Sequence record: OR339795
Source of the DNA: Escherichia phage phi456
Direction: 5' to 3' (one strand)
DNA length: 64,000 bases
The translations under genes and the position numbers were made by a program. This document shows positions 35,957 through 43,191 of the stretch, in pieces. How positions within the stretch are numbered: position 1 is the first letter of the stretch; each line of letters opens with the position of its first letter. The notes beneath the pieces were generated by a model, which ran no database searches, had not been told where the DNA came from, and was given only the letters and a program-made list of their open reading frames with translations.

Positions 35957-38900
35957 CTATATTTTTCCGCCTACGCCTTTAAACTTCTCAATAAACGAGA
36001 CGATTTTCTGGAAAACTGCCTGTTTTTTCGTTTTATATTGCGGATTCAACGGACTAAGTTTTGGTAATGTTTCGTTTAATTCTGTGCCATTTTCTGTGGC
36101 ATATTCGCGTTTTAAAGACGTGCGAATATAGCGTTTTGCTGCATCTTCATTGAGATTTTCTTCTTTTATCAATGCTTCTGCTTCACGTTGCTGTTCGCGT
36201 TGAGCAAACGTAAAGAATGCGTCAATGATGCTGGCTTTGTCCGGTAAATCATCCAGGTTCGTTTGCTGAATAAAATCGACCACCAGGCCCTCTTTAGCAC
36301 GGTTCCCTAAGCTTGAACGAATTAAGCGTTTAACCTCTTCGATCATTTCGCCCTTGCCTTTATTTTGTCTGTTGTGTTCGAAAATCAGTCCAAGGATATA
36401 ATCCAGGTTTATTTCCTGAGACTTCAGCAAATCGACCTCAAAAACTACGTCATCCCAGTCAGTGGTTGATTTCTCTTTTTTCTCAGCTTCTTTCTCACGG
36501 CGCTGCCAGTCGCGAATATCGTTATAGGCAGAACGATAATCCTGAATCTTGCGATCAGCAGGGAGACGAATTGTTTGCAATTCAGCGAGCTTTTCATCAT
36601 CCACATAATGTTCTGCTTTGAATTTTTCTACTGCAACAGGATCGCTAAGATCGATTTGTTGCAGGGCTTTCAGCGTGGCAAATTCATCATAGTTTTGCAG
36701 GATGTTCTCGGCACGCAGGTATTCACCAAACAGTTTAACGAAGTCTTTCTTCTCTTTTTCACTTTCAATACTGGCAGGGTCAGGGAACCGTTGTTCCAGT
36801 TCTGAAACTACTGCCATAAAGCCGCGCTTAGCTTCACCAGTGGCAGCATCAGTAAAGCCTTCCATATACTCTGCATAACTCTTTTCTAAAACCACATTTT
36901 TGGTGTTTTTGTCACCAAACAGCGTTATGGCAGCAATAGTTGAGCGTTCCAGATCCCGGAAAGTGACGATATTACCGAAGGTTTTAGTTGCATCATAAAT
37001 ACGGTTGGTGCGGGAAAATGCCTGCATCAAGCCGTGAAAACGCAGGTTTTTATCGACGAATAGCGTGTTCAATGTTGGAGCATCGAAGCCAGTTAAAAAC
37101 ATCCCCACGACAATTAACAGATCGATATCCTGATTTTTAACCCGTTGGGCTAAATCGCGATAGTAGTTCTGAAAACCGTTACCGTCGGTGCTGAAGTTAG
37201 TTTTAAAATAGCTGTTATACTCACGAATTGCAGCGTCAAGAAACTCTTTAGCACTGCTGTCCATTGCGCTGGTATCAAAAGTTTCATCGGAAATTTCACC
37301 AATGGCATTTTGTTCTTCATTGGCAGCAAAGGAGAAGATTGTCGCAACACGCAGCGGTTTATAGGTAGCCGATTTATTAGCTGCTTCCTCTTGTAACCGT
37401 TTAAACGCCGCGTAATAGGCTTTTGCAGCATCCACGCTGCTCACTGCCAACATAGCATTAAAACCTTTTGAGCCAGGGAAGGTGCGGTGGGTTTTCTGGC
37501 GGAAATTATTCAGAATATATTGCGTGATTTCCTGTATACGCATGGGATGAAGAAACGCCTGCTGATTTTCAGCCGCACTTAGTTTTTTCTCGTCAGTTTC
37601 TGTCTCTAAAGACTTAAACTGTGGCCGCACATCGTTGTAGTCCACCTTGAATTTGAGCACTTTTTCATCACGAATCGCATCGGTAATTACATACGAATGC
37701 AATTCACGACCAAATACGCTGGCGGTCGTTTCTGAGCCTAAGGCATTTTCCGGGAAAATAGGGGTGCCGGTAAAACCAAACTGATAATAGCGTTTGAATT
37801 TCTTCTTCAGGTTTTTCTGCGCTTCTCCAAACTGGCTGCGGTGACATTCATCAAATATAAACACCACTTGCTGATTGTATACAGGCAGGTCGCTTTCTAC
37901 TTTCATCAGGTTATTGAGTTTCTGAATAGTAGTGACGATAATTTTGTTATCCTCCTTATCCAGATTTCGTTTAAGGCCTGCGGTATTTTCCGAGCCGTTG
38001 ACGCTGTCTGGCGAAAAACGCTGATATTCCTTCATGGTCTGGTAATCGAGGTCTTTCCTGTCGACCACAAAGAAGACTTTATCAATAAAGTCCAGCTCTG
38101 TTGCCAGACGCGCGGCTTTAAAGCTGGTGAGGGTTTTACCAGAACCGGTAGTGTGCCAGATATACCCACCGCTTTCCGGTTTTGACCAGTTCTTCGCTGT
38201 AAAGGAACTCTTAATTTTCCACAGAATGCGCTCGGTGGCGGCAATCTGGTACGGTCGCATCACCAGTAGCGTCTGACTACTGTCAAAAACGCTGTAGTTC
38301 ACCAGAACATTCAGCAGAGTATGTTTCTGGAAAAAGGTAGCGGTAAAGTCTTTGAGGTCTTTAATCAGCGTGTTGTCTGATTTCGCCCAATTCATGGTGA
38401 AGTCAAAACTGTTTTTATCGCGCTTTGTCGTGTTGGCAAAATAACGGGTATCGGTGCCGTTAGAAATGACAAACAGTTGCAGATACTTAAACAGGGAATT
38501 TTCGCTGTTAAAACTCTCTTTACTGTAACGATGTATCTGGTTGAAAGCCTCACGAATCGCCACCCCGCGTTTTTTTAGTTCGATTTGCACCAGCGGTAAA
38601 CCATTAACCAGGATCGTGACGTCATAACGGTTAGCATGAGAACCCGTCTGTTCAAACTGCTGGATAATCTGCACCTTATTGCGCATGAGATTCTTTTTAT
38701 CTATCAAATAGATGTTCTCAAGTCGCCCGTCGTCAAAAATAAAGTCGCAGATATAGTCGATATGGATTTTACGGGTTTTATCCAGAATACCATCGCTGGG
38801 GTTGTCCAGATACTGCTCCGTGAAGCGCCGCCACTCGCTGTCATTAAACATCACACCATTGAGGCTCTGAAGCTGTTCCCGAACATTAGACAGCATTGCC

Positions 38901-39073
38901 GACTGTGATTTTACGGAAATAAATTCATAACCCTGATTCCGCAGGTCCTGAATCAGTTCACGTTCCAGGTCCGATTCGCTCTGGTAGCTGTCGCTTGTTT
39001 GCTCAGCTTTGATGTACTTATCAAGGACGATAAAGTTATTGGATTCAGCAATGGTGTGTGTTTGATGAGTCAT
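35957..39073 (-). CDS. hsdR: Type I restriction enzyme R subunit, EcoR124-type (Type IC)
   Basis: 1038 aa starting [22 protein letters not shown], recognised as EcoR124 HsdR; helicase motifs GSGKT and DECH. Confidence 0.9.
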
Positions 39074-39194
39074 AGCGCATCCTTTGTGCCGCCTGGCAAG
39101 GGCCGGAAAGGCGTTAAGAGTGACTTCCGGCGCGTAAAAAATAGTCTATATACAGACCGGATGTTACGATGGTTCGGTCTGTAATAATGGTCAA

Positions 39195-41413: not shown

Positions 41414-41632
41414 CTTATTGGCTAGTTCTGGAAGCACGTAAGTAAATGTTTTATCAGCTGATAACCCATACCTTGTATAAATCTGACCGTAATGTATTGC
41501 TGGAAAACCACTTTCAACGAAATCTTTTTTCTGTAGTCCATTGCCACGTATGAAATCGCCAAGCTCTCCCAGTGACAACCATTCAACATCAACTCCATCC
41601 AGCAATTTGTTCAGAAAGTTCAACCCACTCAT
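41414..41632 (-). pseudogene. hsdS: HsdS N-terminal fragment (about 73 codons) upstream of the IS5 insertion
   Basis: [30 protein letters not shown]...; start overlaps the hsdM stop; frame continues in-register with the downstream fragment once IS5 and one CTTA are removed. Confidence 0.8.
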
Positions 41633-43191
41633 GATTGCGCCTCGTCACCTTCAATCTTTGCCACAATTGCATCAATATCTTTACGCAACTGGTCGATTTT
41701 GCTGACCGTGGTTTTCAGCTCAGCATTCAGCTCAGCAATATCGATAATTTCGCGGTTATCTTTCGCTTCCACATAGCTGCTCACCGACAGGTTATAGTCA
41801 TTAGCAACAACGGCCTCAAACGCGACAGATTTCGCCAGATGAGCAACATTTTCTTTGCTGGCAAATACCTGCATAATCTGGTTGATATGGGCATCAGTCA
41901 GGATATTGTTGTTGGTCTCTTTTTTGAACAGTTCGCTGGCGTCAATAAACTGAACGTTGGTATCCGTTTTATGTTTAGACAGAACCAGAATGTTTACGGC
42001 AATGGTGGTGCCAAAGAATAGGTTCGGAGCCAGTGAAATTACGGTTTCGACATAGTTATTATCGACCAGATACTGACGGATTTTCTGCTCTGCGCCGCCA
42101 CGGTAAAAAATACCCGGGAAGCAGACAATCGCAGCACGACCTTTGGCCGAAAGATAGTTCAGCGCATGTAATACAAACGCAAAGTCAGCTTTGGATTTGG
42201 GGGCCAGAACGCCAGCCGGGGCAAAACGCTCATCGTTAATCAGCGTCGGGTCATCGCTGCCAATCCATTTCACCGAATACGGTGGGTTAGATACGATGGC
42301 GTCAAACGGTTTTTCATCTCTGAAGTGCGGCTCAGTCAGTGTATTACCCAGCTTGATATCAAACTTGTCGTAGTTGATATTGTGCAAAAACATGTTCATA
42401 CGCGCCAGGTTATAGGTCGTATGGTTGATTTCCTGACCGAAAAAGCCTTCTTCGATGATGTGGTTATCAAACTGTTTTTTCGCCTGCAACAACAGTGAGC
42501 CGGAACCCGCTGCCGGGTCGTAGATTTTGTTAACGCTGGTCTGCCCGTGCATAGCCAGTTGTGCAATCAGCTTGGAGACGTGCTGCGGTGTAAAGAACTC
42601 GCCGCCGGACTTACCGGCATTCGCGGCATAGTTAGAAATCAGGAACTCATAGGCATCACCGAACAGGTCAATCTGATGTTCGTGGAAGTCACCAAGTTTT
42701 AGCCCTTCAACCCCTTTCAGAACCGCAGCCAGGCGGGCATTTTTATCTTTAACGGTGTTACCCAGGCGGTTACTGGTAGTATCGAAATCAGCAAACAAAC
42801 CTTTGATGTCAGCTTCTGAAGGATAACCGTAAGCAGAACTTTCGATAGCAACGAAGATGCTGTTTAAATCTGCATTCAGTCTGTCATTAGTATTTGCTTT
42901 CGCAGCTACGTTGCAGAAAAGCTGACTGGGGTAGATGAAGTAGCCTTTAGTTTTGATGGCATCGTCTTTAATGTCATCAGTAATTACGCTGTCATCCAGT
43001 TTCGCATAACAGATACTGTCATCACCGGCTTCAATATAACTGGAAAAATTTTCGCTGATAAAACGGTAGAAAAGTGCGCCCAGAACGTATTGCTTAAAAT
43101 CCCATCCATCGACCGAACCCCTGACATCGTTAGCAATTTGCCAGATTTGACGATGAAGCTCTGCACGTTGTTGAATACTTGTCATTTTCAT
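41629..43191 (-). CDS. hsdM: Type I methyltransferase subunit, EcoR124-type
   Basis: 520 aa; AdoMet motif [10 protein letters not shown] and catalytic NPPY. Confidence 0.9.

Follow-up and report, generated by a model that had tools for sequence, protein, structure and literature searches.

The methyltransferase of a Type I restriction-modification system has the composition M2S1 and the nuclease R2M2S1, and the S subunit is needed by both for DNA recognition and assembly. Families of Type I systems are defined by interchangeable subunits. EcoR124I and EcoR124II, of plasmids R124 and R124/3, are encoded in the order hsdM-hsdS-hsdR, with an HsdM of 520 amino acids and an HsdR of 1038, and P1 DNA on both sides of Type IC hsd loci is reported in the title of a 1997 paper by Tyndall and colleagues that is cited in PMC12707154. 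The 64,000-nucleotide stretch of Escherichia phage phi456 analyzed here (sequence record OR339795; hereafter, the window) contains an hsd cassette with the same gene order and the same HsdM and HsdR lengths, and with an insertion sequence (IS) inside its hsdS gene. We consider it very probable that this is an EcoR124-family cassette, located at the usual site in P1 plasmids, whose hsdS gene was recently disrupted by the IS so that no complete S subunit is encoded.

The hsd cassette and its interrupted hsdS gene

The cassette occupies positions 35882..43291 on the minus strand, a span that includes 1199 bp of IS and duplication, and it stands in place of P1 positions 84483-87968. The map of open reading frames (ORFs) places all three genes on the minus strand in the order hsdM-hsdS-hsdR. 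The hsdM gene (43191..41629) is an intact ORF of 520 amino acids, and its stop codon shares the nucleotides ATGA with the hsdS start codon. The hsdR gene (39073..35957) is also intact, with 1038 amino acids, and is separated from hsdS by a gap of 121 bp. Between them, hsdS is found in two pieces on the same strand. The 5' fragment (41632..41414, with the start codon at 41632) contains codons 1-73, and the 3' fragment (40214..39195) contains codons 74-412 and the stop codon, corresponds to nucleotides 220-1239 of the intact gene and matches the Pfam family Methylase_S.

The two fragments are separated by a 1195-bp element of the IS5 family (41413..40219, minus strand), whose transposase is oriented like hsdS. 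The element is flanked by a target-site duplication that reads CTTA on the plus strand. Copy 1 of this duplication is at 40215..40218, as given by reading of the sequence and comparison with the empty site, and copy 2 is at 41414..41417 and represents nucleotides 216-219 of hsdS. The plus-strand junctions read ...CAGCTTA/GGAAGG...CCTTCC/CTTATTGG, where the slashes mark the ends of the element. The IS thus enters hsdS after nucleotide 219, which is the end of codon 73. When the IS and one CTTA are removed, the result is an hsdS gene of 1239 nucleotides, with 412 codons plus a stop and no internal stop codon. A reading made earlier from the letters of the window (the sequence-only reading) had proposed an IS 73 codons into hsdS, a CTTA repeat and a restored frame of 412 codons, and all of these numbers hold.

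As it stands, the interrupted gene does not encode two complete target recognition domains (TRDs) in one uninterrupted frame, and no second hsdS-like sequence was found in the window. Two ORFs cross the junctions, both on the minus strand. A 96-codon ORF (41632..41342) encodes HsdS residues 1-73 followed by 23 residues from the IS, with its stop codon at 41342-41344, and a 356-codon ORF (40265..39195) encodes 16 residues from the IS fused in frame to HsdS residues 73-412.

HsdR aligns over residues 1-1038 to the HsdR subunit of EcoR124I (PDB 2w00 and others) with 2267 bits, compared with a self-score of 2308, and HsdM aligns over residues 1-519 to the EcoR124 HsdM chain 7bst_D with 1143 bits, compared with a self-score of 1163. 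Both proteins therefore reach approximately 98% of their self-scores against EcoR124I chains, from end to end. HsdR contains the Pfam domains HSDR_N, ResIII/SWI2_SNF2, a T1R_D3-like domain and EcoR124_C, as well as the motifs GSGKT (Walker A) and DECH. HsdM contains HsdM_N and N6_Mtase, with an NPPY motif at residue 302. These tests of membership support the placement of the system, as judged by its sequences, in the EcoR124 family of Type IC. The same matches, together with the conserved regions and the TAEL repeats of HsdS described below, bear out the claim of the sequence-only reading that hsdM, hsdS and hsdR are EcoR124-like.

The empty site and the age of the insertion

The uninterrupted form of the locus is present in public data. 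Plasmid pHFQ1 (NZ_AP023428.1) has an intact hsdS gene that the two fragments together cover, with an overlap of only TAAG and one mismatch in 1239 nucleotides. An exact-protein look-up of the HsdR sequence returned a single contig, ERR1790719_212 (8262 bp), from the Logan assembly of a public read set. In this contig, hsdM, an hsdS gene of 412 codons and hsdR are contiguous; the HsdR protein is identical, the hsdS gene has no mismatches to the reconstructed gene in 1239 nucleotides, and there is one difference from the IS-less window in 8074 bp across the locus. Both pHFQ1 and ERR1790719_212 have the cassette, the flanks and the hsdS allele found here (pHFQ1 is 99.9% identical over 7 kb), and in both the same IS1-truncated pdcB gene adjoins the cassette. 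Unlike the window, they have hsdS without the IS.

The hsdS allele is full-length in 19 PLSDB plasmids, among which it is annotated as intact in 17 and contains an IS in none, which gives at least 19 sequenced plasmids of E. coli or E. fergusonii with the intact allele. More broadly, 901 PLSDB plasmids have Type IC-like hsdS sequences. The insertion junction was absent from PLSDB and from RefSeq complete E. coli genomes when a 200-bp junction query was used. Exact junction strings were absent from GTDB representative genomes (both junctions), from IMG/VR and from JGI metagenomes, and the two junction-specific ORFs had no exact match in the gene index. The insertion appears to be private to the source lineage.

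Because the exact empty-site haplotype exists, the duplication is intact, and the hsdM, hsdR and transposase ORFs are all full-length, the sequences strongly support an insertion that is real and very recent. The recent origin proposed in the sequence-only reading finds strong support in the exact haplotype of ERR1790719_212. Together, the ERR1790719 read set and the source record form a clean natural pair in which the specificity of this uncharacterized HsdS allele could be measured.

Alternatively, the IS could be an assembly artifact in which a copy of a repeat was misplaced into hsdS. IS elements in several copies are a classic source of misassembly, and a second IS5-family copy is only 5.7 kb away in the window. 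However, the junctions coincide exactly with the two IS termini, and a perfect 4-bp duplication of a known empty-site sequence is what real transposition leaves behind. The IS in hsdS and the neighboring copy are 96.4% identical, have a different end of approximately 190 nucleotides and differ in their transposases, which are intact in the former and nonsense-mutated in the latter. Because the copies differ in these ways, a duplicated read-through of the neighbor does not account for the IS in hsdS, and we regard an artifact as extremely improbable.

The HsdS allele and its target recognition domains

The reconstructed HsdS protein aligns end to end with the S chain of EcoR124, 7bst_A, but near-identity is restricted to the N-terminal, central and C-terminal conserved regions. 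In this alignment, neither TRD is related in sequence to the TRDs of EcoR124I, so the specificity of this HsdS is not that of EcoR124I and its recognition sequence must differ too. By its sequence, the system is thus a member of the EcoR124 family with a different and uncharacterized specificity. No S subunit closer than that of EcoR124I was found in PDB. Database names for the allele are only generic ("restriction endonuclease subunit S"), and a recognition sequence is not assignable from them.

The central conserved region of HsdS includes three tandem 12-bp repeats, ACCGCTGAGCTT, at 39840..39875 on the minus strand, which encode three copies of TAEL. The EcoR124I chain in PDB has two such repeats, whereas EcoR124II has three, as does the HsdS protein here. 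Passages of a published account (PMC3874165) state that the number of TAEL repeats determines the length of the spacer in Type IC enzymes, with two repeats and an N6 spacer in EcoR124I and three repeats and an N7 spacer in EcoR124II, and that EcoDXXI and EcoPrrI have three repeats each. By this rule, the 412-residue form is predicted to recognize two half-sites whose spacer exceeds that of the two-repeat, 408-residue form by one base. Public data include near-identical versions of the present allele that share its two TRDs and have one, two or three TAEL repeats (404, 408 and 412 amino acids, respectively). By analogy with EcoR124I and EcoR124II, these versions of one allele suggest natural switching of spacer length.

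The domain layout of HsdS was taken from an AlphaFold model of the 408-residue allele, for which the mean predicted local distance difference test score (pLDDT) is 84.9. In the model, TRD1 spans residues ~16-161 and is followed by a central helix (166-208), TRD2 (217-352) and a C-terminal helix (355-397). The middle of TRD1 is where residue 73 of the modeled allele lies, between secondary-structure elements. According to this layout, everything from the remainder of TRD1 onward, through the central helix and TRD2 to the C-terminal helix, is in the 3' fragment. Because the break is inside TRD1, a complete TRD1 is present in neither fragment.

Predicted loss of Type I restriction and modification

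These observations are consistent with a simple sequence of events. A mosaic of IS5 and ISKpn26 would have inserted itself into hsdS at codon 73, with duplication of CTTA, and the resulting break, in the middle of the globular N-terminal TRD, would leave no complete S subunit. Both activities depend on S, so Type I restriction and modification would be lost simultaneously, which would be harmless to the host, and HsdM and HsdR would persist as orphan but intact subunits. The joint loss of both activities explains how such insertions could be tolerated: when restriction and modification disappear together, the loss should cost the host nothing. The locus would therefore exemplify the loss of a defense system on a P1-derived plasmid in one step, by an IS in the subunit whose absence removes both activities.

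Several points weigh against this interpretation. We infer the loss of Type I restriction and modification from general Type I biology. A compatible Type IC HsdS protein that is encoded outside the visible 64 kb, either in the rest of the replicon or in the chromosome, could use the intact HsdM and HsdR proteins. The ORF that continues in frame from the IS into the 3' fragment makes residual activity with altered specificity conceivable. Passages of PMC3874165 describe Type IC S subunits as unusually tolerant of truncation, as in EcoDXXI delta-N, EcoR124I delta-50 and NgoAV. Finally, the target motif of IS5, YTAR, is described as highly conserved in a passage of PMC10359306, and the duplication observed here (CTTA/TAAG) agrees with it at three of four positions. 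The CTTA duplication is itself unambiguous because the empty site is known.

One alternative is that a second intact Type IC hsdS gene elsewhere in the cell supplies S, either from the rest of the plasmid or from the chromosome (for example, at a leuX/prr-type locus), so that the system is active with a different specificity. Subunits within a Type I family are established to be interchangeable, and the hsdM and hsdR genes here are full-length with intact catalytic motifs. The large number of PLSDB plasmids with Type IC-like hsdS sequences makes co-residence plausible, and a passage of PMC12707154 indicates that chromosomal Type IC systems occur in E. coli. However, the window contains no second hsdS gene, and intact hsdM and hsdR genes are explained equally well by an insertion that is too recent for decay. 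We therefore consider an S subunit supplied in trans to be unlikely.

Another possibility is that the 3' fragment is made as an N-truncated HsdS protein that homodimerizes like EcoDXXI delta-N and acquires a new palindromic specificity from its C-terminal TRD. Translation could start at the in-frame ATG within the IS at 40265, from which the fusion ORF 40265..39195 extends, or at an internal methionine such as M112, which follows GGAG. In the model, TRD2 and both helices, central and C-terminal, are left whole in the 3' fragment, and a Type IC S subunit can function as a homodimer of halves, as is reported for EcoDXXI delta-N in passages of PMC3874165. However, the published delta-N protein is a designed deletion and not a break within a domain, whereas the 3' fragment would retain approximately 89 residues of half of TRD1, which the model suggests are unable to fold alone. 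In addition, the ATG within the IS lacks a convincing ribosome-binding site. A scan of positions 38900-43450 for an outward promoter or a terminator in the IS gave counts at background, with nine promoter-like signals compared with 7.5 expected. An active N-truncated HsdS is thus highly improbable. If it nonetheless exists, it would be a natural case of "macroevolution by transposition" in which the N-terminal side of a Type IC S subunit was affected.

The inserted element

The IS in hsdS has the features that define the IS5 group: a length of approximately 1.2 kb, inverted repeats of 16 bp and one DDE transposase of 326 amino acids. Its 16-nucleotide terminal inverted repeats, GGAAGGTGCGAA(T/C)AAG, are at 40219-40234 and 41398-41413 and bound the 1195-bp element. 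The transposase gene (41345..40365, minus strand) is an intact and uninterrupted ORF that matches the Pfam families DDE_Tnp_1 and DUF772.

Under the ISfinder convention, isoforms share at least 95% nucleotide identity. The element shares 94.7% identity with the IS5 of P1, which is below this threshold, and 96.6% with a copy of ISKpn26. The similarity is unevenly distributed. At the end that follows the transposase stop codon, approximately 190 nucleotides are IS5-like (0-1 mismatches per 100), and the other ~1000 nucleotides, including the whole transposase gene, are ISKpn26-like with two mismatches. From its sequence, the element is thus best described as a mosaic of IS5 and ISKpn26 and not as IS5 proper. 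The name IS5, which the sequence-only reading gave to the element, is appropriate to its family, its length and its inverted repeats, but not to the transposase portion.

The second IS5-family copy in the window, at 47098-48293, is located between c1 and lox/cre and is inverted relative to the copy in hsdS. This copy, 1196 bp long, is a true ISKpn26; it is 99.75% identical to the copy in pCFS3292-3, is flanked by the duplication ATAG and has a premature stop at transposase codon 158. The two copies in the window, with duplications CTTA and ATAG, both depart from YTAR, and the IS5 copy of P1 and another copy of ISKpn26 are both at CTAA targets. The off-motif targets may reflect a looser choice of target by the ISKpn26-type transposase. 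The two inverted copies share approximately 1 kb of near-identity and could mediate an inversion of 41414-47097. Because each copy retains its matching duplications, no such inversion has occurred between them since insertion.

After 23 codons of IS sequence, the truncated hsdS frame reaches its stop codon, a TGA that shares nucleotides with the ATG of the transposase gene (ATGA, 41342-41345). The overlap of hsdM and hsdS (41629-41632) is of the same ATGA kind. Speculatively, read-through from the hsdM promoter and translational coupling might feed expression of the transposase.

A hotspot for IS5 in the hsd locus was also considered and rejected: the ISKpn26 copy of pCFS3292-3 is upstream of pap and not in hsdS, and the IS5 copy of NZ_LR882053.1 is outside the hsd operon.

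The EcoP1I Type III system

The window also contains a Type III system on the minus strand. The EcoP1I res gene (52120..55032) encodes a protein that is identical to P1 Res at 970 of 970 amino acids. The mod gene (55035..56996) is uninterrupted, matches the Pfam families N6_N4_Mtase and T3RM_EcoP15I_C, and is nucleotide-identical to P1 mod, compared in two halves, once the IS5 of the reference P1 record has been removed. These identities confirm that the Type III system is of the P1 type, as had been proposed. Given the state of its genes, we infer that EcoP1I is the working restriction system of this replicon. The motif of EcoP1I is AGACC. The source strain is predicted to have the EcoP1I motif in its methylome and no Type I motif from the hsd locus, and the barrier to transformation and phages that the plasmid provides should be of Type III only.

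P1 sequences surrounding the cassette

In BLAST comparison with P1 (NC_005856), homology stops at window position 35881 (P1 84482), just before the start of pmgT, and resumes at 43292 (P1 87970), at the end of humD. The cassette replaces P1 pmgT, pmgU, pmgV, upfM-O, hot, lxr and humD. An interval running from pmgT through humD had been named in the sequence-only reading, and this is exactly the segment replaced, P1 84483-87968. The cassette lies between pap and phd/doc, which is the usual location in P1-derived plasmids. The region is covered to 80% or more in at least 221 PLSDB plasmids, and one record of a P1-like phage also has this cassette.

Blocks of P1 synteny in the window include c4-repL, parAB, pmgM-pap, phd/doc, c1, cre, res/mod and darB, but the complete P1 gene complement (lpa, pacA, pacB, and tail and baseplate genes) is not present in the 64 kb. 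At the syntenic positions, no match was found to P1 61.3-79.2 kb, which includes dmt, tRNAs, ban and the tail or baseplate genes 5, 6, 24, 7, 25 and 26, or to P1 89.3-93.2 kb, which includes the 3' half of pdcB, lpa, pacA and pacB. Judging by this gene content, the replicon seems to derive from P1 by decay and not to be a complete phage-plasmid. An IS1 at 44643-45411, which directly adjoins the c1 region, truncates pdcB after residue 155.

The block containing lox, cre, c8, ref, mat, res and mod (48577-56227) is 99.96% identical to reference P1, compared with 95.5-98.5% for the other P1-homologous blocks. This difference may indicate that the segment recombined recently with a P1-like donor. 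Positions 14670-30550 consist of IS-rich cargo that does not belong to P1. The cargo includes transposases of the IS3 family and IS2 (17563-19268 and 21961-23130), a YdeO/AraC-like regulator (20555-21355) and an AIDA/MisL-like autotransporter of 1165 amino acids with a VirG insertion domain (24503-28000), which is bracketed by three IS1 copies. An identical autotransporter is encoded on NCBI contigs CP190335.1 and JAHSRN010000004.1, which are approximately 97-103 kb in length.

Comparison with known systems

Systems of this kind, their presence at this location and their inactivation in this manner all have precedents. As in the window, P1-homologous DNA is found downstream of hsdR in EcoR124 loci, according to notes in the P1 record. 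The GenBank record of P1 marks positions 84263-84482 and 87969-88647 as homologous to the flanks of the EcoDXXI and R124/3 hsd loci. EcoDXXI is a Type IC locus that adjoins P1 DNA at these two positions, as the cassette in the window does, and likewise it has three TAEL repeats.

EcoDXXI also provides a precedent for a transposon in hsdS, since passages of PMC3874165 describe a derivative with Tn5 in this gene (Meister et al. 1993). In that derivative, according to the same source, Tn5 struck the C-terminal TRD, and the intact N-terminal half homodimerized to give a new specificity. In contrast, the IS described here splits the N-terminal TRD, which leaves no complete half upstream and a broken domain downstream.

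The closest parallel on a P1 replicon is P1 c1-100 mod749::IS5 (NC_005856), in which, as here, an IS5-family element with a 4-bp duplication disables a restriction-modification gene. In reference P1, IS5 is in the Type III mod gene at a canonical CTAA target, whereas in the window mod is intact, the Type I hsdS gene has been struck, the target is CTTA and the element is a different isoform of the IS5 family. As far as can be judged from the genes, the window is thus a mirror image of reference P1, with its Type III system intact and its Type I system knocked out by an IS.

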